This document shows positions 2,803-19,660 of a DNA stretch of 20,000 bases, piece by piece (position 1 is the stretch's first letter; every line of letters starts with the position of its first letter). The notes beneath the pieces are model-generated. The model was not told the origin of the DNA. It ran no database searches and was given only the letters and a program-made list of their open reading frames with translations. Both the position numbers and the translations under genes were made by a program. Origin of the DNA: an uncultured virus (IMG/VR IMGVR_UViG_3300015607_005478) (lineage: Duplodnaviria > Heunggongvirae > Uroviricota > Caudoviricetes); the IMG/VR virus record IMGVR_UViG_3300015607_005478, one strand, 5' to 3'.

Positions 2803-2836
2803 AGAAGGGCCGCTTGGCCCTTCTTCTTAGCCTCCG
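2803..2836 (+). terminator. terminator-like hairpin with TAGCCTCCG tail
   Basis: AGAAGGGCC-GCTT-GGCCCTTCT perfect 9-bp stem just after the stop at 2799, then TCTTAGCCTCCG. Confidence 0.7.
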
Positions 2837-3386: not shown

Positions 3387-3405
3387 GGAACAAGAAGGGT
3401 GGAGG
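3387..3405 (+). promoter_or_regulatory. repeated promoter-like motif copy 1 plus SD
   Basis: GGAACAAGA-AGG-GTGG(AGG), intergenic, upstream of pyrE ATG 3411. Confidence 0.65.
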
Positions 3406-3410
3406 GCCGT

Positions 3411-3980
3411 ATGGCTAGAGAAACGGATGTTCCCCGCACAATGCTCCTCGAGCTTCTGAAGGAGCATGCGCTCAAGCGCGGGGACTTCACGCTGAAGTCG
3501 GGGAGAAAGAGCAACTTCCTCATCAACTGCAAGGACGTCGTGCTCACAGCCGATGGGCACTACTTCGTGGGTCGTGTGATGCTCGAGACACTCCAAACCG
3601 CGGGCTGTAAGGCTGTGGCGGGTGTCGAGCTCGGTGGGTGCCCCATCGCGAGCGCCATAGCGATGGCGAGCTCGGTAACGGACAAGCCCATCAACGCCGT
3701 CTACGTTCGCAAGTCGCCGAAGGATCATGGCTCGAAGAACCTCCTCGAGGGCGAGGCGTTTGTGAAGAGAACGGACCCCATCGTTGTGGTTGAGGACGTG
3801 ACGACGACAGGTTCTAGCGCCCTCGACGCCGTCATCCAGCTTTGGAAGTACGGCTACAGCGTGATGGGCGTAGCCACACTTGTGGACCGCCTCGAGGGCG
3901 GCCGAGAAAACATCGTGTCGAAGAACCTCACGTTCTGGAGCGTGTTCGACCGCAACGACTTCCTTCCATCAGGTGAGTGA
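3411..3980 (+). CDS. pyrE: orotate phosphoribosyltransferase
   Basis: GDFTLKSGRKS, flexible loop YVRKSPKDHG, PRPP-binding VVVEDVTTTGSS, LVDRLEGG; SD GGAGG 3401-3405 (alternative GTG 3399). Confidence 0.95.
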   Translation: MARETDVPRTMLLELLKEHALKRGDFTLKSGRKSNFLINCKDVVLTADGHYFVGRVMLETLQTAGCKAVAGVELGGCPIASAIAMASSVTDKPINAVYVRKSPKDHGSKNLLEGEAFVKRTDPIVVVEDVTTTGSSALDAVIQLWKYGYSVMGVATLVDRLEGGRENIVSKNLTFWSVFDRNDFLPSGE

Positions 3981-4468
3981 TGACGAACGAAGAGCTCGCC
4001 GACGAGATCATCGTCCGCTTCAACAAACTCCTCGAAAATCCCGAGGTGCGCGCGGACATCAACGCGTTGCTACATCGCACCGTTGGCGCGTGCTGGCAGA
4101 CGCAGGAACATCCCACGATTCAAACCAACGCGCGGCGCCTCAGCGTCATGGGCTTGCTCAACGGCCTCATCGGAACTATCGGTGCCGGGCCGCGCGCCTC
4201 GTGGGGCCTCATCTCAGCTGAGTTCGACGATAGTGAATCGCTCGTGCGCTTTGTTCGCACGGAGCCATTTGTCGTTGGCGCGCCCGTGTGGTGCAAGGAC
4301 ATCACCGGCCCGTATCCAGAACTTCGCGGCCTTGTTGGCGCAGTGAAAGAGATCACGCCGACAGAGATCGTGGTCACGTATCACATCGGGAGAACGAAGA
4401 AGGATTACATCCTTCCTCGAGAAGAGGTGGTGCCCCATGAGCCCGTACCGCGTAAGCGCAAAGCCTGA
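3977..4468 (+). CDS. hypothetical phage protein with possible C-terminal SH3/KOW-like domain
   Basis: GTGA overlap with pyrE; HPTIQ...MGLLNGLIG pattern; C-terminal FVVGAPVW...GLVGAVKEI...IVVTY beta pattern. Confidence 0.7.
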   Translation: MMTNEELADEIIVRFNKLLENPEVRADINALLHRTVGACWQTQEHPTIQTNARRLSVMGLLNGLIGTIGAGPRASWGLISAEFDDSESLVRFVRTEPFVVGAPVWCKDITGPYPELRGLVGAVKEITPTEIVVTYHIGRTKKDYILPREEVVPHEPVPRKRKA

Positions 4469-5020: not shown

Positions 5021-6652
5021 ATGCACGTCGACGACTTCATCGAAGATCCGACATCCGATAAGTACGCGGTGTCGTGGTTCGAGTCATTTCGGCGGCCAGA
5101 GTGGGCCAAGCTAGAAAAGCCTGATGAGCGAAAGCTCTATGCAACGTACAAGGGCGAACGCTACCTCGTGACGGGCTGCTCGCGGATGGGCGATGTGTGG
5201 CTGCACTCGGACCTGACGTACACGGGCATGAGCTACGAGAGACGCGTGAACGTGGCTGACTGCTCTGCGTGGTCATCAGAGCCACAGGAGAAGGGCGATG
5301 CCGAAAATTCGAATCTCATGGGAGCAAGCGCGGATGCTGGGGATAGCGCACTGCGAATGCGGTCACCCAGCGAACAATCACTTCCTGGACCAACCGGGGA
5401 AGCCGTGCGCGCACTGCAAGTGCAAGAAGATGAAAGAGCGCATCACGCTGCCGAAGCGCCGGCGTTAGGGCATGAGCAAGTGATCATTGGTGCCATCTCC
5501 GGCGAAGGCTATGTACAGTCTTGGGGAGTGAGCGCAGACCATGACGCGGGCGAGGCTCGCCAAAACCAGATCATCGTCGAGACTCCGCGCTCAAGCGATG
5601 TCACGACCGAACATGCTGAGGCGTTGATCGCCTGCGCGGCGCCCGTCGCGCCGGTAGCAACCTTCATCACTGCAGATGAGAATCGCCCGAACGAGGCGCC
5701 GCCCGCGGAGAAGTGCGGCACGTGGCTCGACGACGGGACGTGGGAATGCAGGTGCCGCCATGCGAGCGTGAACGACGCTGCCGTCTTTCGGTGTGGATTC
5801 TGCCAACTCTTTCGGCCCGCACCGCGCCCGCAAGAGGCGCCGACACCGAAGATCGACACGGCCGCATGGCTGGAGAGCATCGCTGGCCTGGCCGAAAAGT
5901 TTCTCGAGGACACCACCGACTTCGCGGTCCGCGGACTGCTCGATAGGGCACTCACGCTTCGCCACCACAAGCCGAGCCCAGATTCGCCCACGCTAAAGGC
6001 CGCGACACTGGAGTGCGATCACTGCGGCGATGTCGCGATCGAGTCGAGTAGCGGATACTTTTGGGACGGCGACGGCGGGCGATGTCTCGCGTGTGGCCAC
6101 CCTGGCCATGTTTCTTGTGACGGCGAGGAGTCGCCTTGGTGGAGCACGGGAGACGGAGAGGACGACTTTTGCGCACGTCCCGATTGTGAGGAATGCAACG
6201 AACGCCGCGTGAAGCGGACGGACAAGGCGCTGCTCGATAACATCAATGAGCAAAGGGCGCTGGTCGGGAATCCACCGCTGTCCCGCGACGAGCTGCGCAA
6301 CGCAACTCGCTGCTGTCGAGCATTTTACGGACACGAGGCTGGGTGTCCTAGCGCCAAGGGAACGAAGGGCTCACTGTTGCTCGCGAGCGGCATCTGTCTC
6401 ACGGTGGAAGAGGTCGACGAAGTGCTCGCAGCACGTCGCGTGGACTATCCGCTTCCCGCTCGCGAGATCGCCGAGATGCTGCGGTACCTCTGCGGCGCGC
6501 TCGAACACGATCTCCCGTCCGAAGGCATGGGCGACGACGATGCCGAGCGCCAGAGTCTCAGCTACCTCTACGACAACATTCGCCAGGCGCAGGCTATGGC
6601 GACGCGGCTCGATCCTCGCACTGATTCAGTCACGACACCGGAGAAGAAGTGA
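5021..6652 (+). CDS. 543-aa composite ORF: N-terminal small phage domain plus C-terminal multi-zinc-finger region; probably two genes joined in frame
   Basis: SD AAGGAG; HVDDFI...YLVTGCSRMGDVWL...CSAWS module ending near 5287; WECRC...CGFC, CDHC, CLAC, CEEC motifs later; possible second start GTG 5528. Confidence 0.65.
   Translation: MHVDDFIEDPTSDKYAVSWFESFRRPEWAKLEKPDERKLYATYKGERYLVTGCSRMGDVWLHSDLTYTGMSYERRVNVADCSAWSSEPQEKGDAENSNLMGASADAGDSALRMRSPSEQSLPGPTGEAVRALQVQEDERAHHAAEAPALGHEQVIIGAISGEGYVQSWGVSADHDAGEARQNQIIVETPRSSDVTTEHAEALIACAAPVAPVATFITADENRPNEAPPAEKCGTWLDDGTWECRCRHASVNDAAVFRCGFCQLFRPAPRPQEAPTPKIDTAAWLESIAGLAEKFLEDTTDFAVRGLLDRALTLRHHKPSPDSPTLKAATLECDHCGDVAIESSSGYFWDGDGGRCLACGHPGHVSCDGEESPWWSTGDGEDDFCARPDCEECNERRVKRTDKALLDNINEQRALVGNPPLSRDELRNATRCCRAFYGHEAGCPSAKGTKGSLLLASGICLTVEEVDEVLAARRVDYPLPAREIAEMLRYLCGALEHDLPSEGMGDDDAERQSLSYLYDNIRQAQAMATRLDPRTDSVTTPEKK
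5298..5468 (+). CDS. nested 56-aa basic zinc-binding protein in the +1 frame
   Basis: AGGAG 7 nt before ATG; MPKIRISWEQARMLGIAHCECGHPANNHFLDQPGKPCAHCKCKKMKERITLPKRRR*. Confidence 0.7.
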   Translation: MPKIRISWEQARMLGIAHCECGHPANNHFLDQPGKPCAHCKCKKMKERITLPKRRR

Positions 6653-6891
6653 TGCTGAGTTGGGGTGCGTGCCTCGTCATGACGTTCATCGGTGCGTTTT
6701 TGATCGGTCGCATGTGGGAGCGTGCCAAGCGAGAGCGTCCCTATTGCCGCGAGGAATCGTGTCGAAGACGCGTCGACATCGCTGGGGCACGTTGCCAGCC
6801 ATGTCTCGAGGGAATCGCTCGTAAGTACGAGATGCTCACCGCTGTTGCGAAGGCTCAGGGCACGAACGGAAAGAAGGTGCACGGGTCATGA
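6649..6891 (+). CDS. small membrane-anchored Cys-motif protein (80 aa)
   Basis: GTGA overlap; N-terminal hydrophobic helix then CxxxxC...CQPC. Confidence 0.65.
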   Translation: MMLSWGACLVMTFIGAFLIGRMWERAKRERPYCREESCRRRVDIAGARCQPCLEGIARKYEMLTAVAKAQGTNGKKVHGS

Positions 6892-6936
6892 CGCTCGAAC
6901 GCGGTCTAGAAAACGCTCAAGAAGCGAGATGGATGA

Positions 6937-6955
6937 GGCATAAGAGGTGTGGAGG
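6937..6955 (+). promoter_or_regulatory. repeated promoter-like motif copy 2 plus SD
   Basis: GGCATAAGA-GGT-GTGG(AGG), upstream of ATG 6963. Confidence 0.65.
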
Positions 6956-6962
6956 CTAGACC

Positions 6963-7277
6963 ATGACCACACTTCTTCAACGACTCATCCTCGCGCTCTC
7001 GGACAACGACCTCTGCGATATCCGTGAACTCATCACGCAGGAGATGAAGCAGCGCCCGCTTAGAACTACGTGGCTCACTGCGATACCAGAGACGGTGGAC
7101 GATCGAGCAGCTCTCATGCGCTTCTTCATGCTCGATCGCAATATCACCGAACGCGACGCCCTTCGTCTTTGCACGGCGGTGAACTCAGGTGAGGCCGTCA
7201 ACATGAAGTATCTCACGCTCGACGCGTTCGACCGACTTAGCAGGATCCCAGGCGTTGTGCTGCGGTTGGAGCTCTAG
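6963..7277 (+). CDS. hypothetical protein (104 aa)
   Basis: GGAGG SD 7 nt upstream; abuts next gene. Confidence 0.8.
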   Translation: MTTLLQRLILALSDNDLCDIRELITQEMKQRPLRTTWLTAIPETVDDRAALMRFFMLDRNITERDALRLCTAVNSGEAVNMKYLTLDAFDRLSRIPGVVLRLEL

Positions 7278-7631
7278 ATGGCGCGGGCGCAAGCGGGCAT
7301 CCCGGGCATCAGCGTTTCAATCGAGACCGAGGACTACGTCATCATCACGCGCGGAGATCGGAAGGTCTTCGTCCACTTCAATGACCGCGACGGCAAAGTG
7401 TTCGCGAAGGTCAGTGGTGCTGGCGAATCACCGCTCGGGCGTATTCAACGCATCCTTGAGGCGACGGATATCGGAACGCCTCGCGGCGTGAACTCAGGGC
7501 GCTCGTCTTTGCGCGAGCGCGTTACCGCGTGCAAACACGAGATGTGGCACGTCGGTCTCGACACCCTTATTCGCTGCGTCGATTGTTCTGAAGTGGCGAA
7601 CAAGGAGTACTTCAAGGGAAGAGCAAAATGA
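7278..7631 (+). CDS. hypothetical protein (117 aa) with C-terminal CxH...CxxC
   Basis: Abuts previous stop, GGAG SD, ATGA overlap downstream. Confidence 0.75.
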   Translation: MARAQAGIPGISVSIETEDYVIITRGDRKVFVHFNDRDGKVFAKVSGAGESPLGRIQRILEATDIGTPRGVNSGRSSLRERVTACKHEMWHVGLDTLIRCVDCSEVANKEYFKGRAK

Positions 7632-8104
7632 GCATCGAACAAGATCTTGAGTTCTGGCACATCGAAGAGGACATTCGGTACTTCAAGGCGAAGATCGAGC
7701 TATCCATGCGCAGTCTGCCACCGCTCGCCGCCGAACGCGCGCGGATGTACCTCGTGCTTCTTACACAAGCCCGTGATGAGCTCGTGTTGAAGCATCCGCG
7801 CACGGGTGCCGAGACGTTCATGCCGAAGATGACGAACGAGGCACGCATCGAGTTCGTCAAGCACGCGCTCAACAGCGGACAAGAACAAGCACTCATAGAC
7901 TTTGCCGTGCACTACATCCAGGATCGCCTCGAGCATCTTGCGCGGCAGCCGCCCATGCCTCTCGGCAAGACGGCTCAGCAGGTGAATGAAGCCATCGAGA
8001 TCATCATGCAGTTCCTGCGTGACAACGGGCAGACGCAGCAGCTCGCGCGCCTCGAAGGGCAGTACAAAGCCATGCGCATTCTCGAGGGCGAGCCGTCTTC
8101 GTGA
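7628..8104 (+). CDS. hypothetical helical protein (158 aa)
   Basis: Four-base overlaps at both ends; typical codon usage. Confidence 0.8.
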   Translation: MSIEQDLEFWHIEEDIRYFKAKIELSMRSLPPLAAERARMYLVLLTQARDELVLKHPRTGAETFMPKMTNEARIEFVKHALNSGQEQALIDFAVHYIQDRLEHLARQPPMPLGKTAQQVNEAIEIIMQFLRDNGQTQQLARLEGQYKAMRILEGEPSS

Positions 8105-8283
8105 GCTACCGGATGCCGGTTGGCTGCCCCGCCTGCGGTGCACCTGCGGGTCAACCTTGTCGTCGACGCATCATTGATAGAAGCGACGGAAGCATACGCG
8201 TGCTCGGACACACGCCACGCTCACCGCATGTAGCGAGGCTCATGCGCATTCACGTGCTCAACCGAAAGAAAGAACATGGGTAA
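8101..8283 (+). CDS. small phage-type zinc-finger protein (60 aa)
   Basis: CPACGAPAGQPC...H..R motif; GTGA overlap. Confidence 0.7.
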   Translation: MSYRMPVGCPACGAPAGQPCRRRIIDRSDGSIRVLGHTPRSPHVARLMRIHVLNRKKEHG

Positions 8284-8511: not shown

Positions 8512-9087
8512 ATGCACATCATCTGCGATGAATGCTTCAAGAAGGCCCAGCCTCTCGAAGAGATAACCAAGGGCACGATACACGTGACGCCCTGGCTGTG
8601 TGCGTATTGCGGAACTTCAACGCCCGCAAATACAACGCACTACCTCTCGGGTGACACACCCAGCTGGGACGTCTGCCGCACCCTCGGCGTCTCAACCAAG
8701 AACTGCAGCTTCTTCGACTACGAATCGATTCAACGAGACATCGACGTTGAGTTTGAGACAGAGCTGCAGAAGGACACGCGCGGGCTGGCAAACCGACTCA
8801 TCGACTGGCTTCGTAGCCCCAGGCAGTCGAACGAGGCGCCGAAGAAGCGCATGGCGCGTGTCATCGAAGAGCTGGGCAAGCTCTCTTCGTGGAACAACAA
8901 CGACCCGCGCGAGAACATCTACAAGCGCGGAGACATCCTCGTCCTTCATCCCGATGGACGTATCGGTAAGGGGCAGGTCGATACGAAGGAAGGTTGGTAT
9001 CTTCACATCGTCCTCGACAACGGCCAGATGATCTACGACTGGGACACGACGTGGTTGTGGTGCCACGACCCGAGGAAGAAGAACTAG
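8512..9087 (+). CDS. hypothetical protein (191 aa) with N-terminal zinc ribbon
   Basis: GAGGT SD; CDEC...CAYC. Confidence 0.75.
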   Translation: MHIICDECFKKAQPLEEITKGTIHVTPWLCAYCGTSTPANTTHYLSGDTPSWDVCRTLGVSTKNCSFFDYESIQRDIDVEFETELQKDTRGLANRLIDWLRSPRQSNEAPKKRMARVIEELGKLSSWNNNDPRENIYKRGDILVLHPDGRIGKGQVDTKEGWYLHIVLDNGQMIYDWDTTWLWCHDPRKKN

Positions 9088-9089
9088 TC

Positions 9090-9320
9090 ATGCCCAAACT
9101 CTCCTTCGAAGCACCGCCACAAGGCGCGTATAAAACGCGGCTTCTTCTCGACGACGTCCACGTCGATGGTGTTCTGAGCGTGGCCCTCCACTTCTCAGGC
9201 AACGCGCCCTTTCCTGCGTGCCTCATTGTGCTCTACGCCACCGAAGAGAACATCCCCATTGTCGAATCGCTCAGGACTATTCCCTGGGTCACCGTCGTTC
9301 TTGAACGACCACCCGCATAG
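9090..9320 (+). CDS. hypothetical protein (76 aa)
   Basis: ATG 2 nt after previous stop (preferred over track start 8994); followed by hairpin. Confidence 0.7.
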   Translation: MPKLSFEAPPQGAYKTRLLLDDVHVDGVLSVALHFSGNAPFPACLIVLYATEENIPIVESLRTIPWVTVVLERPPA

Positions 9321-9325
9321 CGCGT

Positions 9326-9368
9326 GTCGGCCCTCCTAGCGGGGGCCGGCTCTTTCCTTTAGCCTCCG
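9326..9368 (+). terminator. terminator-like hairpin with TAGCCTCCG tail
   Basis: GTCGGCCCTC-CTAGC-GGGGGCCGGC 10-bp stem (2 G-U), then TCTTTCCTTTAGCCTCCG. Confidence 0.7.
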
Positions 9369-9372
9369 GTTC

Positions 9373-9582
9373 ATGCCGCACAGCACGCACGGCCGAGAGT
9401 CGCCGGAAGAAACGCCCAACCTCACCTTCTGCCCCTGCCTCGGGCACGCACTGCAGAAGGAATGCGCCGAGGCGGGCTGCGGCTACTGCCACAACGCGGA
9501 GAATCCACCCCCTCCCCTCGACCCCGAGATATCAGCGGCGCTGGGCTGGGATGTAGACGCCGTTTACGGGAAGAAGGACTGA
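9373..9582 (+). CDS. small Cys-rich hypothetical protein (69 aa)
   Basis: CPC...C....CGYC; no SD, TAGCCT 7 nt upstream. Confidence 0.55.
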   Translation: MPHSTHGRESPEETPNLTFCPCLGHALQKECAEAGCGYCHNAENPPPPLDPEISAALGWDVDAVYGKKD

Positions 9583-9586
9583 CGAT

Positions 9587-9955
9587 ATGGACGACATTCG
9601 ACCGAAAGGCACCGGGGAAGGGCCATGCGCATCCTGCCCCGTGGGTGAGAACGGCGAGCGCTGGTACTTCTGGGTGGACGCCCTTGATCCGCGCTTGCCG
9701 GATGGCCCCTTCATCTGCCCGACATGCATCAACGGCGACAAGCCCCTCGAGAAGGAGACCGTCGAGGGTCTCATCCAGCAATTCGGCGCGCAGATGTGCC
9801 TCGACATCGCGCGGGAAAAACTACAGAACCACGCCCCCGATCTCTACCCTCCACTTATCCGCCAGTTGCTTCGGTACACACAGAGCCTCAGCCACACGCC
9901 CCTCTGGCAAGAAGTCGACGCGCTCCTCAAGAAGAACGCTCCCCAGGAGAACTGA
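9587..9955 (+). CDS. hypothetical protein (122 aa) with CxxC pair
   Basis: AAGGA SD; CASC...CPTC. Confidence 0.75.
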   Translation: MDDIRPKGTGEGPCASCPVGENGERWYFWVDALDPRLPDGPFICPTCINGDKPLEKETVEGLIQQFGAQMCLDIAREKLQNHAPDLYPPLIRQLLRYTQSLSHTPLWQEVDALLKKNAPQEN

Positions 9956-9961
9956 TCCACC

Positions 9962-12900
9962 ATGGCCGGATATACCGCCGAAGAGATTCAAGCCGTCGTC
10001 GAGAAGCTGGTGCTCTCCACCATCCGGAGGCCTTTCGACACTCTCGGTGTAAGGAGACCGGATGTGTCCTTCACGGATGTGCAAGAGGCTGCGGCCGGGG
10101 TTTTCTTGTTGTACCCAAACAGCCCTTTCTACGTTCTATACCTAGGAGCACAGCGCCTTGGCGACCTGATTGCGGCGGAGGCGTCCAGCATCGAGCAGCT
10201 CCTGGACGCCATCGAGGCGACAGGACGGAACGTGCTGCCGGTCGAGGACGTGTCGACGCTGTTCAACGCCCAAGCGGCTCTCCAAGAGCTCGGGAGCGCG
10301 GCGGCGGCCCGAGGGGGCATCTTCGGGGACATCACCAAGGCGCCGGCGTACCAGCGCTTCTCGAACAACGTGCAGCAGTTCCTGAGCGGGCCCGGCCAGA
10401 ACGTGAAGCAGGCAGGCACCATCGTCCAGACGCCTCAGCAGGCGCGGGCGGCCATCCCTGGCCTTCTGTCCCAGCTCGAGGAGGCACATGCCACGCTCGT
10501 TGCTCGGGTGGGCGGCATCGCGAGCGGCATCGAGGACTACAACAAGGTGAACCTGCCGCGCGTTGTATCCACCTCGGTGCTCTCGAACGCGGCGAACCTC
10601 GTGGGCGCCGATGCAGCGGCTCTGGATGTACTCACTCCAACAGAACGCCTGACCCTCATCCGCCAGACGGTGCTCGACGTGCTGAGCGTCCGCGCGGTGG
10701 TTACAACGTTTGGCTCCTTCGCACCGGCGAGCGACTTCTACGCGCTCGAGGGCATCGGGCGGCCCTACTCCGATGCGAAGCACTTGAGCACGCCCGCGTT
10801 CGGCGATGTGGGCGTCAACACCTTCGGCATCATCCAGGGCGTCAACGACAGCATTACTGTCACCGTCGACGACGGCGCGCCACTCACACTGACCTTCCAG
10901 CCCTCGAACCTCGCCGAGCTCGACGGCGTGGCGACGGATGACCGGTTCATCATCGGCAATGGCACAACGCCCGTCCTTCCGGGTGGAGCGTCTGTTCCGA
11001 ACAACAACATCTTCCAGCTTGAGGTGGACGGCACCATCTACCAAGCGACGCTCACCCCTTCGAGCTCGCCCACACCGGCGGTGCGCATTGGCTCGGGGGA
11101 TACAACAACGTCGGGCTGGTACGGCGGTGGCGGCACGCTCAACGGCAAGACGCTCATCCTCAACATCGACGGCACGTTCACGTATACGGTGACGTTCACC
11201 GCGCCAGCTAACGCAGCGGCCATGGTCTCGCAGATCAACGCGGTTACAAATGTGACCGGTGGGCAGCATCTCGTTGTAGCGGACATCTTCAGCAATCGTC
11301 TCAGGCTCACCACCGTAAACACGGGTGCCGGCGCGGTCATCATGATCGGGCCAGGCACGGCCGACAGCATCCTGGGACTGGCACAAGGCACAACGGTGCG
11401 CGGATCTTCTGGAGCACGCACCGCAGACCAAGTAGCGGCGGACATTCAGGCCGTGTTGCCCGCCGGCGTTGTAGCGGAAGGTTACTTCACGCCGCTCCGC
11501 TTCAGCGGCGCCTTCCATATCAATGCGGACTTCGCTGGGTTCTCGACGTTCGAGGCTCTTGCGGGAGCCACGGACTTCCTCGCACTCGGCGTGACGAACA
11601 AGGACGTCGTTCACGTGTTGGATGGGCCAAACGCCGGCATCTATCCCATCAACGCCGTCGGCACGACCACGATCGATGTATTGGGCTTCTTCACCGATGA
11701 CCCGAGCCGCGTGTGTGAAATTGGTCCAGCCAACCGCGCGGTGCGCGTCCGTTGTACGGATCCTGCAACGCAGCTCCCGATTGAAACAACCATCAAGACC
11801 GTTGCGACGTTCTCCATCGCGCAGGCGTGCCTCGACGTGCTCGGCTTCATCGCCGGCGGTGCCTCGCAGTGCTTGCGAACGCCGATGAAGGACCTCGCAA
11901 CGGACCTGAGCCACAAGAGCTCGGCGCTCTCCTTCGAGGCCGTGCCGCATTACACGCTCACGAATGTCCGTGCGCTCACGAAGCCGACGGATCCGAGCGT
12001 TGTAACCATCGTGCCGATTCAAGCCGTCGGCACACAGGCGTTCGCCTCCACGACCATCGCGTACACGGTTACATCCGTGGTGGCTTCGCAGCGCGCGGTT
12101 GTTCCTTCTTCTGACCGCCTCTTCCTCAACGACGGGCCGAACGCCTTCGCTGACTACGGCATCAACACCATCAATGGCTCCACGGCAGCGAAGACGCTCG
12201 AGGTCGGCGATGTGATCGTAGGAACGGGTACAGTCGCAGGGAGTGCGGGCTCCGGCGTCACTGTCTACATCAGCCAGCCCTTCACACCGGCGAAGTATGA
12301 CGTGTTCGCCATCGATGGCGGTCCGAACAACGGTGACGATTACGTCGTCGGGCCTCCGCTGACGGGCGTGAACATCTTCGACGTGCCGTTGCTCAACCGT
12401 GCGTTGCCTGCGTATGTGTCCGGCCCGAGCACACCCATCGAGATGTCGCTCAGCTACGGACAGTCGTATCTGCGCTTCGCGTCCCCGACCCCAACCACCG
12501 CAAGCCGCATCCGCGTCTCGAGTCCGAGCTCGCTCTTCGCGGCTGTCGATCGTTACGGCACATCACCTTGGTTCTTGCTGCCGACGGTTCCTCGCGGTCT
12601 GCAGGCCGGGGACCTCTTCTTCGGCTACTCCTCGGATTACAAGACGCCGAGTATTACGGCGACCATCGATTCGGTCGACACGTCGCTCAAGGTTATCGGC
12701 GTCAGCCCCGAGCTCGCCTCGAACGTGACCTGGCAGTTCTCCACGCAGCCTCCGCCCTTCGCGCGCCTGCGCATGGGCGTTCTGAACGACTACTCCACCG
12801 TCAAAGAGAAACTCGATGCGTGGCTCGCTCGCGATGTGAACCAAACCTCGTTCTTCACCAACTTCAACCGCTTCATCAACCCGCTCCTCGCGAACGACAA

Positions 12901-13387
12901 CCCGACAGCGGTGCAGGTCGGCACGGCGAAGAACGAGCTCCTGCGCTTCTACGCCTATCTGCTCGCCACCGAGGCGGAGGCATTTGGCATCGATGCGGCT
13001 CTCGCACTCGACACCATCTTGTCCTTGTACACAGTGCAGCGCGTCGATGCCGTGGACACGCTCCTTCGGACGTTCGTGGAGAAGGGCTCGGACCGCGCGA
13101 ACGACCTGCTTCTTCAGGGCGCGTTCCAGACCTTCTTCGATCTCACCGTCGACGGCGCGAGCTACAGCGGCGCGTTCCAAGAAGCGGTGCGCGACGTAGC
13201 CCGTAACGACCTGCCTGTCCGACGCGTGAACCGCGCAGATGCGCAGACCTCACGCATGATCAGCCAGACCTCGAGCCCCGACTTTGAATACACGGCCGCA
13301 AGCGTGAGCGAGTCGGTGGAAGGCGACGCATCCGTCGACCCGCCGGGCACCTACGGCGAGCCGGCGAACTACGGACGTACAGATTGA
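9962..13387 (+). CDS. large probable virion structural protein (1141 aa), tail/baseplate-like
   Basis: Long ORF rich in Thr/Gly/Ala/Val with low charge; helical termini around a beta-rich core; TLNGKTLILNIDG...SQINA...LRLTT...GTADSILGL module. Function is inferred. Confidence 0.6.
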   Translation: MAGYTAEEIQAVVEKLVLSTIRRPFDTLGVRRPDVSFTDVQEAAAGVFLLYPNSPFYVLYLGAQRLGDLIAAEASSIEQLLDAIEATGRNVLPVEDVSTLFNAQAALQELGSAAAARGGIFGDITKAPAYQRFSNNVQQFLSGPGQNVKQAGTIVQTPQQARAAIPGLLSQLEEAHATLVARVGGIASGIEDYNKVNLPRVVSTSVLSNAANLVGADAAALDVLTPTERLTLIRQTVLDVLSVRAVVTTFGSFAPASDFYALEGIGRPYSDAKHLSTPAFGDVGVNTFGIIQGVNDSITVTVDDGAPLTLTFQPSNLAELDGVATDDRFIIGNGTTPVLPGGASVPNNNIFQLEVDGTIYQATLTPSSSPTPAVRIGSGDTTTSGWYGGGGTLNGKTLILNIDGTFTYTVTFTAPANAAAMVSQINAVTNVTGGQHLVVADIFSNRLRLTTVNTGAGAVIMIGPGTADSILGLAQGTTVRGSSGARTADQVAADIQAVLPAGVVAEGYFTPLRFSGAFHINADFAGFSTFEALAGATDFLALGVTNKDVVHVLDGPNAGIYPINAVGTTTIDVLGFFTDDPSRVCEIGPANRAVRVRCTDPATQLPIETTIKTVATFSIAQACLDVLGFIAGGASQCLRTPMKDLATDLSHKSSALSFEAVPHYTLTNVRALTKPTDPSVVTIVPIQAVGTQAFASTTIAYTVTSVVASQRAVVPSSDRLFLNDGPNAFADYGINTINGSTAAKTLEVGDVIVGTGTVAGSAGSGVTVYISQPFTPAKYDVFAIDGGPNNGDDYVVGPPLTGVNIFDVPLLNRALPAYVSGPSTPIEMSLSYGQSYLRFASPTPTTASRIRVSSPSSLFAAVDRYGTSPWFLLPTVPRGLQAGDLFFGYSSDYKTPSITATIDSVDTSLKVIGVSPELASNVTWQFSTQPPPFARLRMGVLNDYSTVKEKLDAWLARDVNQTSFFTNFNRFINPLLANDNPTAVQVGTAKNELLRFYAYLLATEAEAFGIDAALALDTILSLYTVQRVDAVDTLLRTFVEKGSDRANDLLLQGAFQTFFDLTVDGASYSGAFQEAVRDVARNDLPVRRVNRADAQTSRMISQTSSPDFEYTAASVSESVEGDASVDPPGTYGEPANYGRTD

Positions 13388-13412
13388 ACACGGCATAGAT
13401 TGAAACAAATCG

Positions 13413-13431
13413 GGGACAAGAGACATGGAGG
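13413..13431 (+). promoter_or_regulatory. repeated promoter-like motif copy 3 plus SD
   Basis: GGGACAAGA-GAC-ATGG(AGG), upstream of ATG 13437. Confidence 0.65.
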
Positions 13432-13436
13432 AACCC

Positions 13437-13817
13437 ATGTCACTTTCCAACCAAGCACAAGCCGATCAGGTACTGCGCAACCTTTGTGCTCCACGCAGGG
13501 TGGAGCGGAAGAAAGTAAAGAACGGCCTCGACGCTGCCATGTACGCGATGGACGCGTTCGATCGGTGGCGCGACTTGCACGACAAGGCGGACACCGTCGA
13601 AGACGCCGAGCGCGAGGCCTGGCTCGAGTTCCGTCACTACTTCGACGAGATGCTTCGTCTCACGAAAGACCTCGACATGCTCTCGCACTTGTCACTCGTC
13701 GAACGGACGAAGGCACGCGTTCTCATCCGCAGCGTTCAAGTACTCTCGCTCATCTACGGGCCCTCGAATCGGAAGGAGCTCGAGGCGCCACCTCGTAAGA
13801 GCTGGTGGAGGGGTTGA
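13437..13817 (+). CDS. hypothetical helical protein (126 aa)
   Basis: GGAGG SD 13427-13431 (alternative in-frame ATG 13425); followed by hairpin. Confidence 0.8.
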   Translation: MSLSNQAQADQVLRNLCAPRRVERKKVKNGLDAAMYAMDAFDRWRDLHDKADTVEDAEREAWLEFRHYFDEMLRLTKDLDMLSHLSLVERTKARVLIRSVQVLSLIYGPSNRKELEAPPRKSWWRG

Positions 13818-13820
13818 CTC

Positions 13821-13853
13821 GGAGAGGGCGGAAAGCCCTTTTCTTAGCCCCCG
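13821..13853 (+). terminator. terminator-like hairpin with TAGCCCCCG tail
   Basis: GGAGAGGGC-GGAAA-GCCCTTTTC stem (2 G-U), then TTAGCCCCCG. Confidence 0.7.
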
Positions 13854-13888
13854 TTCCCGCCGCGCGGCCGCACCCGTAAAGTGAAGGT

Positions 13889-15094
13889 GTGACCACCACG
13901 AAGAAGTTCCAGATCAATCCGGATGACCTGGAGTTCGGAAAACCGCGGATTTTGCTCGTAGAAGACGAGCCGACTTTCGCCAAAGTCGTCTCGCGCGTGT
14001 TATCCGATGATTACGAAGTGGTCGTTGCCGCCGACGGTTTGGTGGCCAGCACCCTGCTGACCGAGCCGTTCGACCTCATTCTGACCGACCTGCTTCTTCC
14101 CGGCCTCAGCGGTGTGGACCTTCTGCGCTTGGTCAGGACCTACGACCTCGACGTGCCGATGGTCATCATGACCGGCATGCCGTCGCTCGACACGGCCATC
14201 GAGGCGGTCCAGCTCGGCGCGCTGCAGTACCTCGTGAAGCCGGTGGACCTCGACCTGCTGCGAGAGACGGTGAGTAAGGGCGTTGCGCTGAACCGCCTGG
14301 CGCGGACCAAGCGGGCCGCCCTTGCCATCGCCAGTACAACGGAAGCCAGAAGCGAGCCGCTCTTCATGGGCGATCGTTTGGGGTTGCGGGTGCGGTTCGA
14401 CCGAGCGATGCAGCACCTGCGTCTCGTCTTCCAGCCCATCGTCGACTTCAAGACGCGGCGCATCGTGGCGTACGAAGCGCTCATGCGCTCGCGGGAGGAC
14501 TCGCTGCCGTCACCGGGCGCTGTTCTCGACGCCGCCGAACGTCTCGGGCTTGTAGGCGAGGTGGGTCGGCAGGTTCGCCATCTGGCCGCGGCTGCCATGC
14601 CCCTTCTTCCGAAGGGAGCCGATCTCTTCGTGAACATCCACACCGCCGAACTCGCTGACGACTTCCTGTTCTCGGGCGGCTGTCCGTTGGTGCCCCATGC
14701 CACGCGCGTCATCTTCGAGATCACGGAGAGGGCGGCTATCGACGGCGTGCACGACTTACCGAAGCGTGTTCGCACCCTCCGCGAGATGGGCTTTCGCATC
14801 GCTCTGGACGACCTCGGTGCGGGCTATGCCGGGCTCTCCACGTTCGCTTCTCTCGAGCCGGACATCGTGAAAATCGACATGTCCCTCATCCGCAACATCC
14901 AAGACTCGATTACGAAGCAGCGTGTCGTGCGCTCGCTCGTAACACTCTGCCGCGAGATGAACATGCGTGTCGTGGCGGAGGGCATCGAGACAAGCGAAGA
15001 GCTCGCCGTCGTCGCCGACATCGGTGCCGACCTTCTGCAGGGCTACTTGCTCGGCAAACCGGCAAAGGTATTCAGCACGAAAGTGAACCTCTAG
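13889..15094 (+). CDS. response regulator receiver (REC) plus EAL domain c-di-GMP phosphodiesterase
   Basis: REC: ILLVEDE, LILTDLLLPG, MTG, LVKP. EAL: FQPIV, YEALMR, FVNI, FEITER, IALDDLGAGY, VKIDMS, VAEGIET, LQGYLLGKP. Confidence 0.95.
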   Translation: MTTTKKFQINPDDLEFGKPRILLVEDEPTFAKVVSRVLSDDYEVVVAADGLVASTLLTEPFDLILTDLLLPGLSGVDLLRLVRTYDLDVPMVIMTGMPSLDTAIEAVQLGALQYLVKPVDLDLLRETVSKGVALNRLARTKRAALAIASTTEARSEPLFMGDRLGLRVRFDRAMQHLRLVFQPIVDFKTRRIVAYEALMRSREDSLPSPGAVLDAAERLGLVGEVGRQVRHLAAAAMPLLPKGADLFVNIHTAELADDFLFSGGCPLVPHATRVIFEITERAAIDGVHDLPKRVRTLREMGFRIALDDLGAGYAGLSTFASLEPDIVKIDMSLIRNIQDSITKQRVVRSLVTLCREMNMRVVAEGIETSEELAVVADIGADLLQGYLLGKPAKVFSTKVNL

Positions 15095-15117
15095 CCTTCT
15101 TCTGCTACAACCGGGCG

Positions 15118-15405
15118 ATGCGTACCGTTCTCACGTTGGGTCGCTTCTCGTTCGCCGTTGCCGCGGCAGCTACTGCTGGAACCGCTGATAGCGCGGAGCT
15201 GACCCTGCCGGCTGAAGCCGCGAGCACGATGATTCGAGAAGAGCCGCCTCTCGCACCCGGCCCGCGCTCGCGCAAAGAACGTCGAGCCGCAAAGAAGTTC
15301 AATCGCCTGCTCGAGCGCCGCCTCAGCAAGGACAAGACGCCGGTGAGGGTGGAAGTACAGCCCGACGGCGGCCTGCACGTGCAAGTCAACACACGGGAGA
15401 AGTGA
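15118..15405 (+). CDS. hypothetical protein (95 aa), possible signal peptide
   Basis: MRTVLTLGRFSFAVAAAATAGTADSA N-terminus; TGATG overlap with next ORF. Confidence 0.6.
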   Translation: MRTVLTLGRFSFAVAAAATAGTADSAELTLPAEAASTMIREEPPLAPGPRSRKERRAAKKFNRLLERRLSKDKTPVRVEVQPDGGLHVQVNTREK

Positions 15406-15518
15406 TGTCCCTGCGCGCCTTCGATTTCATCAGCGGGTTTGTAACCGGGCTGCTCGCCCTCATCTTCCTCAGCTTCTTGCGCCACGCGTACATTCTGTAT
15501 CTGTACCGACGTCGATAA
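15405..15518 (+). CDS. 37-aa single-pass membrane microprotein, absent from ORF track
   Basis: GGGAG SD, TGATG overlap; MSLRAFDFISGFVTGLLALIFLSFLRHAYILYLYRRR*. Confidence 0.65.
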   Translation: MSLRAFDFISGFVTGLLALIFLSFLRHAYILYLYRRR

Positions 15519-15527
15519 GCTGGAGGC

Positions 15528-16031
15528 ATGAGAGAGCTCACGCAGACCAGCCTCAACCCCGGCAACTGTTGGCAGACGTGCATTGCTTGCATTCTTGAGC
15601 TCGACCCGGAGACGTTGCCGTCCCAGGTTGAGCACGACATGCGCCGTGTTATGGGTCCGAACGGTGACTGGACCTGGGAGGGCCGAGGTTACGGCAACGT
15701 GCTCGGCAACTACCTGCGGAAGCATCACGGACTTGCGTACGTCCAGCTTCATTACCCCGAAGAGATATGGTCAGCAGTTGCTGTCCGCCCTGGTCTGCAC
15801 ATGATGACCGGGCGCACCGAGCGAACAGCGCAGAACGGTTCACGACATGTTGTGGTTGGTGAGAACGGCTCAATCCGTTGGGACCCGCATCCTTCGAGAG
15901 CGGGTCTCCTCGACGAGATCGAATACGGCTTCCTCATCCCCTTCCCCAAGATGTGGGAAGAGACGTGGACCCGCATGCGCGAAGACTGCCTCTGCCCTGC
16001 CTGCGTGAGCGTGGCTAAACTCACTCCATGA
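15528..16031 (+). CDS. putative papain-fold (C39-like) cysteine hydrolase
   Basis: GGAGG SD; Q...GNCWQTCIACILEL, RHVVV, WDPHPS give Gln/Cys/His/Asp in papain order. Confidence 0.65.
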   Translation: MRELTQTSLNPGNCWQTCIACILELDPETLPSQVEHDMRRVMGPNGDWTWEGRGYGNVLGNYLRKHHGLAYVQLHYPEEIWSAVAVRPGLHMMTGRTERTAQNGSRHVVVGENGSIRWDPHPSRAGLLDEIEYGFLIPFPKMWEETWTRMREDCLCPACVSVAKLTP

Positions 16032-16411
16032 AGCTGGCCGAGCTCGAGCCCCAATTCCTGCGTCACGAAGAGAAGCTCGAGAAGCGGATGTATCAGACCA
16101 AAGATGGTCGTACAGAAGAGCGAGAAGAGCTGCAGACGTACCACGTCTACGAAGACGAGCTGTCGAAGGCGCAGGGCATCATGTTCTTGTGCCCCGAGTG
16201 CTTCAAGAAGAACAACGGGCCTGTCGGAACACATTCGGTCATCTGCTGGTTCCGCGACCGCGGTGTCCCTGCGGATGCTTTCCCTCTCCCCGGCCGCTGG
16301 GTTGTAACCGGTACAACCTATGAAGACCTCACCTTGAGCCCTTCTGTTCTTCTGACCGACGGCTGCCGGTGGCATGGCTTCGTTACGGGAGGAATGATCA
16401 CGCAGTGCTAA
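16028..16411 (+). CDS. DUF6527-like zinc-binding protein (127 aa)
   Basis: FLCPEC...H...W...DLTLSPSV...CRWHGFVTGG; ATGA overlap; family name recalled from memory. Confidence 0.65.
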   Translation: MKLAELEPQFLRHEEKLEKRMYQTKDGRTEEREELQTYHVYEDELSKAQGIMFLCPECFKKNNGPVGTHSVICWFRDRGVPADAFPLPGRWVVTGTTYEDLTLSPSVLLTDGCRWHGFVTGGMITQC

Positions 16412-16414
16412 TCG

Positions 16415-16493
16415 AAGAGCAGAAAAAAACTTGAGAGGGTCTAAGTAGTTGAAATTAGGTAGGCGGACTCTCTTCAAGTTTTTTTCTGCTCTT
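16415..16493. repeat. long inverted repeat / stem-loop in AT-rich spacer
   Basis: AAGAGCAGAAAAAAACTTGA (16415-16434) is perfectly complementary to 16474-16493; after a 1-nt bulge, 8 more pairs (16435-16442 with 16465-16472, 2 G-U); 22-nt loop. Confidence 0.95.
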
Positions 16494-16557
16494 TTATCAA
16501 CGTCACTCTCTCAAGATCTCTACCTAGACGAAGAGCTGGAAGAACAACCCCAGGCAG

Positions 16558-16573
16558 GGGATAAGACTTGTGG
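16558..16573 (+). promoter_or_regulatory. repeated promoter-like motif copy 4
   Basis: GGGATAAGA-CTT-GTGG; SD AGGAGG at 16585-16590, ATG 16596. Confidence 0.65.
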
Positions 16574-16595
16574 TCACTACAACTAGGAGGACCAC

Positions 16596-17444
16596 ATGTT
16601 CGTTTGGGGAAGGCACCATGCTGCCCTCTGCCGAGCTCGGCAGATCATCGACTTTCTAGGCGCGAGACTTGATCGCGGTCCGCACCTCACCGTCATCAGG
16701 GAGTTCAACGAGCCGTCTCTTCTTATGGGACTCGGCGTTCGCCTCAGCTCGATTGTGCTGGTGTGCTCGAGCGAGGAGGCTCTTGAGGTGGAGCGACATC
16801 TGCCGCAGCTTCGTATCATCGCCGATGATCTTTCCGGCGCCATCAAAGACTGCCGACGCCGTTACACCTACGCGTTCTACGAAGCTCCGGGAGAAGGCAC
16901 GCTTACCACGCGTGCGGTCGACGAGTTCCAGCAGATCCTCTCTCAGGGCGTCGCCACCGACGGTCTGGCTGCTATCTCCTTCACCCTCAACGCGAGCGAG
17001 GATGAAGAAGAAGCACCCGAGCTCGTGAAGATCATCAGTGAACGTGAGGTTGGTGCTGACAATCCAACTCTGAGGTCTATCGACCTTACAGCGTCGCTTC
17101 GGGTGGCGGCGTTGCTACAGATGAACGCCTGGCGTTTTCAAACGACAACGGTGTGGGAGCCCAGTCACGTCTTTGCCTGGGAACTTCCTGACGGCGGCTG
17201 CGAAGCCTTTGCGATTGGGCCGGTTCGACGTGGGCGTCGAGCGCAGACTGCCGTGCTCGGAGACAGAATCTTTGCACCGGTCACGGCCGCCACGCTGGCC
17301 TCGGACGAGGAGGGCTTCAAGCACCGCATCGTCGAGTTCTTCGAACGCTTCAACAGCACACTGGCCGACCGCGACATGACCATCGCCACTCTCGCAGCCG
17401 TCATCAACATTCCGTTCAAAGAGGTTTCGACATGGATCAAGTGA
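16596..17444 (+). CDS. hypothetical protein (282 aa) with possible C-terminal helix-turn-helix
   Basis: AGGAGG SD; C-terminus RDMTIATLAAVINIPFKEVSTW fits an HTH pattern. Confidence 0.75.
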   Translation: MFVWGRHHAALCRARQIIDFLGARLDRGPHLTVIREFNEPSLLMGLGVRLSSIVLVCSSEEALEVERHLPQLRIIADDLSGAIKDCRRRYTYAFYEAPGEGTLTTRAVDEFQQILSQGVATDGLAAISFTLNASEDEEEAPELVKIISEREVGADNPTLRSIDLTASLRVAALLQMNAWRFQTTTVWEPSHVFAWELPDGGCEAFAIGPVRRGRRAQTAVLGDRIFAPVTAATLASDEEGFKHRIVEFFERFNSTLADRDMTIATLAAVINIPFKEVSTWIK

Positions 17445-18174: not shown

Positions 18175-18219
18175 GGGAAAGAGCAGCGGCAAAAGCCTCT
18201 GCTCTTTTTCTAGCTCTCG
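18175..18219 (+). terminator. terminator-like hairpin with TAGCTCTCG tail
   Basis: GGGAAAGAGCAGcGGC-AAAA-GCCtCTGCTCTTTTTC (one mismatch), just after the stop at 18172. Confidence 0.7.
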
Positions 18220-18220
18220 C

Positions 18221-18239
18221 GGCATAAGAAGAGCGGAGG
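18221..18239 (+). promoter_or_regulatory. repeated promoter-like motif copy 5 plus SD
   Basis: GGCATAAGA-AGA-GCGG(AGG), upstream of ATG 18247. Confidence 0.65.
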
Positions 18240-18946: not shown

Positions 18947-19317
18947 AGCCGCTGCTTATCTCCATCGCTGGACGCGTGGGTCACTCATTCGAAGTGAAGA
19001 CGATGATCAAGGGCTTCGGGGTACACGCACGCGGTATGACGGTTACCGCGTCTGGGGAGAAGAGCGCCACGGTGGAGACCGCACCTTTGCGCGGTCGTTC
19101 TTTCATCGTCACGTTCCGCGCAGGTAAGGTCGGCCTCATCGCCGGCTGCTCATGCAGCACGCCGCAAGCAGAGCGCCCGTGCCGGCACATGTGGGCTGCT
19201 CTCCTCGAGATTGACAAGCAAGGCGGACTCACTGCATTCCGCAGGAGGCGAGGACCTATCACCCTCAGCTGTCCTCCCGGAAAGAAGGAGAAGAAAGATG
19301 CCCGCCGCGTCGGCTAA
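18943..19317 (+). CDS. stand-alone SWIM zinc-finger protein (124 aa)
   Basis: CSC-x8-CRH then MWAALL matches SWIM CxCxnCxH; ATGA overlap. Confidence 0.75.
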   Translation: MKPLLISIAGRVGHSFEVKTMIKGFGVHARGMTVTASGEKSATVETAPLRGRSFIVTFRAGKVGLIAGCSCSTPQAERPCRHMWAALLEIDKQGGLTAFRRRRGPITLSCPPGKKEKKDARRVG

Positions 19318-19660
19318 ACGTCAGCCCAAGGTCACGAAGGCCTATAGCTGCTCGAACTGCGGCAAAGTCTTTCGGCATGACGTGCACGGAAAGGCTGCGG
19401 CCGAGATTTGCTGCACGTGCCCGAAATGCGGCGGGCCTTGTGACCGCTACATTGGCTCGAGCGATAAGTACTGCGCTTCGTGCAAAAACAACGCTGAGTG
19501 GGAGAACGCGGTGAAGTACTTGAAGGACTCGCTCCTGAAGTACATCGCCGTGTCCCGTGCGCAGAAGAAGCGCGACCCAGAGATTGACCGCTTCATGAAG
19601 CGCTTCGTGGAGGAGGCGCCAAAAGAAGCGCCCGTACCAGTGAAGAGGAAGCATGCCTAA
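19298..19660 (+). CDS. multi-Cys zinc-binding protein (120 aa)
   Basis: AAGGAG SD; CSNC, CCTCPKC, YCASC. Confidence 0.75.
   Translation: MPAASAKRQPKVTKAYSCSNCGKVFRHDVHGKAAAEICCTCPKCGGPCDRYIGSSDKYCASCKNNAEWENAVKYLKDSLLKYIAVSRAQKKRDPEIDRFMKRFVEEAPKEAPVPVKRKHA

Follow-up and report, generated by a model that had tools for sequence, protein, structure and literature searches.

A putative host-derived, receiver-gated cyclic di-GMP phosphodiesterase encoded on DNA of an uncultured large tailed phage

RocR (PA3947) and PvrR of Pseudomonas aeruginosa are CheY-EAL phosphodiesterases, in which a receiver (REC) domain is joined to an EAL domain that acts on cyclic di-GMP (c-di-GMP). RocR is described as being activated by phosphorylation and as competing with RocA1 for RocS1 (PMC4933438). 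The subject of this report is a gene of the same architecture on a stretch of 20,000 nucleotides from an uncultured virus (IMG/VR record IMGVR_UViG_3300015607_005478; Caudoviricetes), hereafter called the window. The REC-EAL gene occupies positions 13889..15094 on the plus strand, and its product of 401 amino acids (aa), P0001, is likewise a two-domain protein of the ~400-aa size of RocR and PvrR. It is an orthologue of neither. Identity to RocR is 22%, and the NCBIfam model of PvrR (NF052596) aligns residues 19-391 of P0001 to model positions 4-379 of 398 with 128.6 bits, against an equivalog cut-off of 580. Unlike the chromosomal two-component locus of RocR and PvrR, the gene is phage-encoded and has no adjacent cognate sensor kinase. 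It is probable, and we hold it with moderate confidence, that the gene specifies a host-derived, kinase-gated c-di-GMP phosphodiesterase that is kept as a phage accessory gene and lowers c-di-GMP in the infected cell.

Cellular REC-EAL proteins of Polyangia or Myxococcota (P0007, P0021, P0030, P0047 and P0091) are 50-60% identical to P0001 over their full length and have the same residues and the same DDLGAGY form of loop 6. This cellular family is found in chromosomal contexts with sensor kinases, FHA-GGDEF proteins and Pkinase-PilZ proteins, whereas P0001 lies between phage genes without a signalling partner.

Acb1 and Apyc1 are nucleotide-degrading enzymes by which phages counter CBASS (cyclic oligonucleotide-based antiphage signalling systems) and Pycsar (pyrimidine cyclase systems for antiphage resistance), and they have 2H-phosphoesterase and metallo-beta-lactamase folds, respectively. 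P0001 is predicted to resemble them as a phage enzyme that hydrolyses a cyclic nucleotide messenger of the host. It differs from them in its EAL TIM-barrel, its fusion to a REC domain and its likely housekeeping target. No Acb1- or Apyc1-type fold was found in P0001, in which only the REC and EAL domains were detected.

Several other c-di-GMP genes occur on viral DNA. A diguanylate cyclase has been found on Mu-like viral contigs (PMC7785012), and the PHROGs collection has two EAL families, phrog_11823 and phrog_22021, annotated as 'unknown function'. An 80.7-kb provirus (G009) carries an EAL-only gene at 6866-7549, about 1 kb from a separate REC gene at 8541-8888, and a 225.6-kb contig (G010) carries a GGDEF-EAL gene at 98706-99560. 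Like P0001, these are turnover enzymes on viral or proviral DNA. They differ from P0001 in having other architectures, none with REC fused to EAL, and none has been reported as kinase-gated and belonging to a large phage of the lytic type. A full-text literature search found no paper on a phage-encoded REC-EAL protein, and the main text of a 2026 preprint on 790 myxophages contains no mention of c-di-GMP, EAL, response regulator or jumbo.

Domains and cellular relatives of P0001

The GTG start codon of the gene abuts an in-frame TAA. Pfam Response_reg matches residues 21-128 (13949..14272, plus strand; E 1.1e-21, 77.6 bits against a cut-off of 30.2), and Pfam EAL matches residues 173-391 (14405..15061, plus strand; E 2.5e-54, 184.6 bits against a cut-off of 31.3). 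Conservation was assessed in an alignment of 13 sequences, namely P0001 and 12 homologues at 50-80% identity. In the REC domain, D26, the acceptor D67, T95 and K117 are identical in all 13, and position 25 is E or D throughout (E25 in P0001). The EAL domain is equally constant at E196, L198 and R200 (EAL-x-R), N249, E277, E280, D307, D308, K328, E364 and E367 (EGIE) and Q384. The functional roles of these residues we take to be those described for RocR and for EAL domains. The original prediction, which had been made from the letters of the window, named an acidic pocket with acceptor Asp, Thr and Lys in the REC domain and a set of metal-binding and catalytic motifs in the EAL domain; both claims are borne out by the Pfam matches and by this conservation.

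The AlphaFold model of P0001 has a mean predicted local distance difference test score (pLDDT) of 81.2. In a Foldseek search of the PDB its best match is RocR (3sy8; 396 columns, E 4.3e-23, TM score 0.54, at the identity given above). The leading matches are chains B, C and A of this entry (396-398 columns, E ~1e-22), and all leading structural matches are EAL proteins. At the sequence level, the best phmmer match in the PDB is a stand-alone EAL protein of V. cholerae (6ifq, E 6.7e-27), and the match to RocR 3sy8 spans residues 21-392. Judged by its domains, its residues and its RocR-like fold, P0001 is an intact orphan response-regulator phosphodiesterase of the RocR/PvrR type, an ordinary enzyme family on an unusual carrier. 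Hydrolytic activity, gating by phosphorylation and a benefit to the phage are inferred.

About 7,600 scored homologues of P0001 were obtained. Four of them, P0002-P0005, stand apart at 80, 77, 67 and 64% identity; the remaining bulk lies at ~50-58%, and its named members are labelled Labilithrix, Polyangiaceae or Myxococcales. The best 80 matches in species-representative genomes (43-52% identity) come nearly all from Polyangiaceae, Polyangia or Myxococcota metagenome-assembled genomes; calling of open reading frames (ORFs) returned the REC-EAL gene at 63 of the 80, and 17 loci were left aside. In trees of 85 and 87 sequences, P0001 and P0002-P0005 form one clade, with support of 100 and 99 in the Shimodaira-Hasegawa-like approximate likelihood ratio test (SH-aLRT). 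The enclosing clade also holds P0006, P0013, P0023 and P0026, P0007-P0010, P0011 and P0012, the Labilithrix-labelled P0021 and P0047, and Polyangiaceae loci. This phylogeny, which had been proposed as a check, places the P0001 clade among cellular genes of Polyangia (Myxococcota). Within the five-member clade the EAL domains are 70-85% and the REC domains 59-74% identical and all key residues are kept; by these measures, both domains are retained.

The GC content at third codon positions (GC3) of the REC-EAL gene is 0.81, with a mean of 0.73 (range 0.57-0.84) for the other ORFs of the window and of 0.87 for the 63 cellular homologues. Overall GC is 60% in the window and 67% in the cellular loci. 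A metagenome scan with P0001 gave 80 loci; the contig of the window is not among them, and the other 35 window ORF queries had no counterpart in any. P0005 lies on a contig of 129,371 bp, the size also given for the contig that carries P0131, a homologue of a marker protein of the phage group described below. The REC-EAL gene was probably captured from a Polyangia host by an ancestor of a ~195-kb tailed-phage lineage and then kept.

The immediate neighbours of the 63 cellular homologues, 123 proteins, were scanned with Pfam. A histidine kinase adjoins the REC-EAL gene in 12 loci, a GGDEF protein in seven (six of them FHA-GGDEF), a Ser/Thr kinase in five (two with a PilZ domain) and a stand-alone receiver in three. 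By gene content, the cellular family is embedded in two-component and c-di-GMP networks and the phage copy has lost all partners. HisKA, HATPase_c and GGDEF had no match among the 37 window ORFs scanned, in agreement with the earlier statement that the window holds no histidine kinase or GGDEF partner.

Some of the cellular loci have recurrent arrangements. The six FHA-GGDEF genes, all in Polyangia loci, lie downstream of REC-EAL in L134, L158, L161, L176 and L193 and upstream of it in L208. In L182 and L198, REC-EAL is paired with a Ser/Thr kinase fused to PilZ. The Ser/Thr kinase was considered as a conserved neighbour of the cellular homologues and dropped, as it adjoins in just five of 63 loci after the Pfam scan. 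Of the relatives with a cellular context, L008 (P0007; gene 9920-11119) is the nearest, at 57-60% identity to P0001 and 68% GC. At L008:6069-11119 one strand encodes, in order, a protoglobin-STAS protein, an RsbW-like HATPase_c_2 protein, a kinase with RsbU_N, HisKA and HATPase_c domains, and REC-EAL. It is possible that this cluster is a gas- or stress-sensing route to c-di-GMP breakdown.

Phage lineage, accessory slot and a second capture

The viral context of the gene is seen through a marker gene at 9962..13387 (plus strand), which encodes a protein of 1141 aa and is known from metagenomic homologues, IMG/VR loci and matches in the BFVD collection of viral structures. This protein has 48 homologues among 5.8 billion clusters, all of them metagenomic, and 11 of the 48 lie on contigs of 174-198 kb; the cluster of P0001 itself reaches a contig of 195,848 bp. 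IMG/VR yielded no match to P0001 or to the 1141-aa protein in single-sequence scans, and records were obtained only with alignment-based scans. Seven IMG/VR records of 111-196 kb carry the marker gene, with CheckV completeness of 58, 88, 91, 95, 100, 100 and 100%, and one of the seven has direct terminal repeats. For five of the 35 window ORF queries (3977-4468, 9962-13387, 15118-15405, 16028-16411 and 19211-19660) homologues were found in three of these relatives (G001-G003), on IMG/VR viral genomes of 171-194 kb. Among 50,697 phage records, neither megablast with the window nor tblastn with the 1141-aa protein had a match.

The complete relative G002 (193,844 bp, 63% GC) was scanned for 103 of its 214 called ORFs; those shorter than 180 aa and eight across fetch borders were left out. 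It encodes a terminase large subunit (6.4e-35), a major head protein (7e-10), an endolysin and tail-fibre proteins, and, for replication, a DNA polymerase, a primase, DnaB- and Dda-like helicases and a UvsX-like recombinase. For transcription it has a sigma-factor-like protein and an RNA polymerase beta-like protein of 2162 aa. The latter (G002:7048-13536; L097) matches several PHROGs of phage RNA polymerase beta subunits along its length, and the phage group appears to encode a fused polymerase of the multisubunit type. We conclude that the window is predicted to be part of a ~195-kb tailed phage of the marker group, for which structural genes are seen in the relative G002. The phage-borne character claimed for the gene, and the viral context that was to be confirmed, are supported through these relatives, by shared genes in IMG/VR genomes and by a shared regulatory cassette (see last section).

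REC-EAL itself is absent from all seven marker-bearing relatives. In G001 a distance of ~275 bp separates the marker gene from the homologue of the 95-aa ORF that follows REC-EAL in the window (15118..15405, plus strand; 45-53% identity to G001 and G002 in tblastn), and in G002 ~1.9 kb of different small ORFs lie between the two. The corresponding 1.7 kb of the window are filled by REC-EAL and by an ORFan of 130 aa (13425..13817, plus strand), which has only a self-match in the homologue search and neither a family nor an atlas match. By this comparison, REC-EAL sits in a variable slot flanked by two conserved phage genes and is an accessory ('moron') gene.

The gene borders are continuous in separate assemblies. 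Five sequencing runs from two studies, labelled wastewater metagenome, contain all sampled words of 12900-15700. Four runs were examined, and in each of the four a single per-run contig bridges both REC-EAL borders. Contigs X1 and X2 show 0 differences over 9000-17000; X3 extends over 9394-17000 and X5, which comes from the second study, over 11786-17000 with 2 differences. The runs may include the source sample of the window; the assemblies are separate. A chimera at the gene boundaries, which the original prediction had named as a way in which it could fail, is unlikely because contigs from four runs span both borders.

A second phage carries a related gene. An IMG/VR contig of 24.7 kb (L001; 67.6% GC, CheckV 48%) encodes a REC-EAL protein of 404 aa at L001:9953-11167, 49-50% identical to P0001. 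On one side of it lie a portal gene (phrog_146, 8.8e-97) and a large terminase gene, and on the other side genes for a DNA methyltransferase, a DHH phosphoesterase, phrog_18063 and phrog_10276. L001 has none of the other window ORFs. Its REC-EAL protein clusters with P0021, P0047 and L185 (SH-aLRT 98), outside the P0001 clade. As it groups elsewhere and belongs to an unrelated phage, two phages would have taken different branches of the same Myxococcota family. The DHH-family gene (L001:14152-15159; phrog_4771) lies ~3 kb from REC-EAL. Its product may be a nuclease of the RecJ kind; a more speculative option is an enzyme that degrades pGpG and would thereby complete the breakdown of c-di-GMP.

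Stand-alone receivers are found in the phage group as well. Four of the seven related phages (G001, G002, G005 and G007) have a single stand-alone receiver protein of 136-220 aa above the Pfam cut-off, at G001:148053-148316, G002:77410-77748, G005:16418-16732 and G007:59876-60187 (loci L096, L095 and L128). The acceptor Asp is kept in all three that were aligned, and their identity to the REC domain of P0001 is ~30%. HATPase_c was found in none of the five REC-carrying phage records searched, three of which are at least 91% complete; the supply of phosphoryl groups would therefore have to come from the host or from small phosphodonors. The unusual carrier is accompanied by two independent captures and by what looks like a lineage-wide habit of keeping orphan receivers.

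Proposed function and competing explanations

Under the proposal of a kinase-gated phosphodiesterase, P0001 would be made in the host cytoplasm during infection, and a host histidine kinase or acetyl phosphate would phosphorylate Asp67. The phosphorylated receiver would activate the EAL domain, which would convert c-di-GMP to pGpG, and collapse of the host's c-di-GMP pool would be confined to a particular sensory state of the host. Matrix production, motility and multicellular development of myxobacteria are under c-di-GMP control. A low level would mean less exopolysaccharide and matrix, and starvation-induced development and sporulation would be blocked; the phage would gain a productive cell and an easier release of progeny. 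P0001 would also compete for phosphoryl groups and could thus dampen the normal output of the kinase. Development of M. xanthus is described as needing a threshold of c-di-GMP (PMC4877007). That the enzyme is gated by phosphorylation and taps a host kinase, as first suggested, we infer with more force than before because the receiver residues are intact in the clade, L008 lies behind a kinase, and five phage records are without HATPase_c.

The receiver need not act as a switch. It could be a dimerisation or scaffold module of a constitutive phosphodiesterase whose regulation comes entirely from phage transcription, and this would suit a gene that is orphaned from any kinase and preceded by an apparent phage-specific transcription boundary; VieA, also a REC-EAL protein, is reportedly active without phosphorylation. 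Such a role is unlikely in our judgement, since the acidic pocket, the acceptor Asp, the Thr and the Lys show no variation in the clade or in related cellular proteins, which would not be expected if phosphorylation were irrelevant. Conversely, the receiver may be all that was selected, as a phosphate sink or decoy that drains a host kinase and silences its normal response regulator, with the EAL domain secondary or vestigial. The invariance of all EAL catalytic residues in the five-member clade speaks against this, and the EAL domain is better conserved than the REC domain, which argues for selection on the enzyme. The stand-alone receivers of four of the seven relatives, with the acceptor Asp kept in the three aligned and no kinase in the phage records that carry them, would fit a sink, as would the competition of RocR with RocA1 for RocS1 (PMC4933438); these receivers are, however, just ~30% identical to the REC domain of P0001, and we regard a sink, too, as rather unlikely. 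The substrate could also be different, so that the EAL domain would destroy an immune signal, 3'3'-cyclic GMP-AMP (cGAMP) or the c-di-GMP of a CBASS-type system, and not housekeeping c-di-GMP. It is known that phages eliminate immune nucleotide signals or sequester them, and Acb1 and Apyc1 degrade them. The best PDB sequence match of P0001, 6ifq, was deposited as a 'cyclic di nucleotide phosphodiesterase' or 'versatile EAL', and M. xanthus is described as making 3'3'-cGAMP (PMC8844925). Against an immune target stands the closeness of P0001 (50-60%) to housekeeping Myxococcota REC-EAL proteins encoded beside FHA-GGDEF cyclases, PilZ kinases and sensor kinases. A receiver that awaits a host kinase would be an odd design for an immune countermeasure, P0001 is unrelated to the Acb1 and Apyc1 folds, and family scans, which did not include the PADLOC library, recognised no defence or anti-defence gene nearby. 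CBASS that signals through c-di-GMP is described in bacteria without housekeeping c-di-GMP signalling, and the idea is disfavoured here because the cellular relatives adjoin GGDEF and PilZ genes. The link to STING or CBASS immunity drawn in the original prediction thus found no support, the name of the best PDB match being its only hint, and an anti-defence role seems quite improbable.

Finally, the DNA might not be viral at all, being an island of a bacterial chromosome, a megaplasmid, or a bacterial gene mis-joined to phage DNA. No hallmark phage gene lies in the window, the single-sequence IMG/VR scans and the nucleotide search of 50,697 phage records were empty, and the relative G003 is labelled a provirus by IMG/VR. 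Mis-joining is opposed by the per-run contigs from four runs and two studies, which run across 9000-17000, or 11786-17000 at the least, with 0-2 differences. A bacterial island is opposed by the presence of marker homologues on viral genomes with terminase and capsid genes and by the absence of the marker from 401 sampled genomes of the host class (positive control 3 of 3); it was also not found in five Polyangiaceae-type genomes. High gene density, a single coding strand, matches to phrog_5845, phrog_32468, phrog_6053 and Phage_zn_bind_8, and a GC content of 60% against 67% in the cellular loci fit a phage, and a non-viral origin is very improbable.

Several points weigh against the reading of P0001 as a host-derived, kinase-gated enzyme of this phage lineage. 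Loop 6, which has the consensus DDFGTGYSS in EAL domains, reads DDLGAGYAG in P0001; the same variant is present throughout the cellular family. The trees were made by a quick method with SH-aLRT as their support measure and a midpoint root. Among P0002-P0005, the tie to the marker gene is limited to P0005 and consists in the equal contig size of 129,371 bp. The host is deduced from gene phylogeny alone; no CRISPR link was obtained, and the marker scan of host-class genomes gave no prophage link. The window lacks hallmark genes for virion and packaging, and its phage identity stands on five shared genes and one motif. A scan for sigma-70-like promoters gave 0 sites in 12800-15800, so that the putative promoter of its own, with which the gene had been credited, was not recovered.

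A wider reading can be offered tentatively. A ~195-kb lineage of myxobacterial phages may plug orphan receivers into host phosphorelays, and in one sub-lineage the receiver would drive an EAL domain and read the state of a host sensor kinase, such that c-di-GMP, matrix and sporulation collapse only on a signal. In this way the virus would eavesdrop on a sensory pathway of the bacterium by means of a phosphorylation-gated enzyme. The arrangement would have at least two separate origins, as another branch of the family was captured by an unrelated 24.7-kb phage. The signal read through the kinase may be oxygen, nitric oxide or stress, by analogy with the nearest cellular relative, which is wired to a protoglobin-STAS and RsbU_N-kinase module. 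These features suggest that the virus rewires host behaviour during infection. Interference of viruses with housekeeping second messengers is poorly documented and considered limited; in the words of a 2026 preprint, viral targeting of core host signalling is 'comparably limited', and the authors treat it as an open question (PMC13640721). If the enzyme is active, it would provide a tractable case of a virus that makes host manipulation conditional on a host sensory kinase, and signalling genes would join the auxiliary-gene repertoire of myxophages. The carriers would be a large virus of soil and wastewater myxobacteria, the host being taken from gene phylogeny, and a second, unrelated phage with hosts in that group.

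The upstream cassette and other features of the window

The 71-bp gap upstream of REC-EAL holds a cassette at 13821..13853 on the plus strand. It consists of a hairpin with a 9-bp stem (13821-13843) and a U-run, followed by TTAGCCCCCG (13844-13853). Two further copies, each made of a hairpin, a T-run and TTAGCCTCCG, lie on the plus strand at 2803..2836 (folding z-score -2.97) and at 9324..9368, and a similar cassette is seen at 18175-18222. The motif TTAGCCYCCG has three exact matches in the window (2827, 9359 and 13844), all of them on the plus strand, intergenic and right behind a hairpin and T-run. Only 0.03 matches would be expected, and none of 200 shuffles reached three, for a pattern derived from the same data on which it was counted. 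TTAGCCTCC occurs five times in G001 and G002, and four of these occurrences directly follow, by eye, an inverted repeat and a T-run. Such sites were noted near 12413 and 104851 in G001 and near 147792 and 148956 in G002; the reverse complement of the motif reads GGAGGCTAA.

The cassette resembles a transcription boundary peculiar to the phage group, and REC-EAL probably opens a transcription unit. One possibility is that the cassette unites a terminator with a promoter that serves an RNA polymerase or sigma factor encoded by the phage itself. Of the terminator that was originally placed before the gene, the hairpin and U-run are real and form part of a recurrent cassette; the hairpin has a folding z-score of only about -1.4 to -1.9, and a generic terminator scan of 12800-15800 made no call there, its two called sites both lying elsewhere than upstream of REC-EAL. 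A near-perfect long hairpin of 81 nt is found at 16414-16494, in an intergenic region of 184 bp (-43.2 kcal/mol, z-score -6.56), and is followed by TTTTATC.

The window as a whole is a dense co-directional array of mostly ORFan genes, and GC3 supports plus-strand ORFs throughout. Between 15105 and 16477 the minus-strand frames are longer, yet it is the plus-strand ORFs that have the relatives and PHROG matches. These include ORFs matching phrog_5845 (15528-16031, plus strand; 9.8e-23) and both DUF6527 and phrog_15183 (16028-16411, plus strand). Phage_zn_bind_8 has a family match at 8101-8283, and phrog_6053 was also matched among the window ORFs. Family scans of the window found no capsid, portal or terminase gene, and a tRNA scan found none. 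The ORF at 3399-3980 encodes a pyrE-like orotate phosphoribosyltransferase (phrog_32468 at 4.2e-38; TIGR00336 with 137.5 bits, above the cut-off), an auxiliary gene of nucleotide metabolism. At 5021-6652 a Cys-rich protein of 543 aa is encoded, and its N-terminal 80-110 residues (within 1-109) are similar, at 37-44% identity, to hypothetical proteins from large phages (145-188 kb) of Vibrio, Yersinia and Cobetia.

The 1141-aa marker protein has no meaningful match among PDB sequences, and its atlas scores are below 0.9. Its model has a pLDDT of 69.5 and matches 110 BFVD viral proteins at E<=0.001, with an uncharacterised Caudovirales protein first (1.7e-28) and then tail sheath and baseplate J-like proteins. 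Foldseek probabilities in the PDB are at most 0.41, bar one match to FliD at 0.69. From the BFVD matches alone, the protein is probably a virion or tail protein. An internal domain of ~110 aa, at residues ~365-490, recurs in other proteins of the related phages, at G001:38146-39177, G001:45023-45400, G002:175146-175487 and G005:114395-115249. The open frames that carry this domain have from 303 to ~1150 aa, some with tandem copies, and it is probably a shared surface or decoration module.

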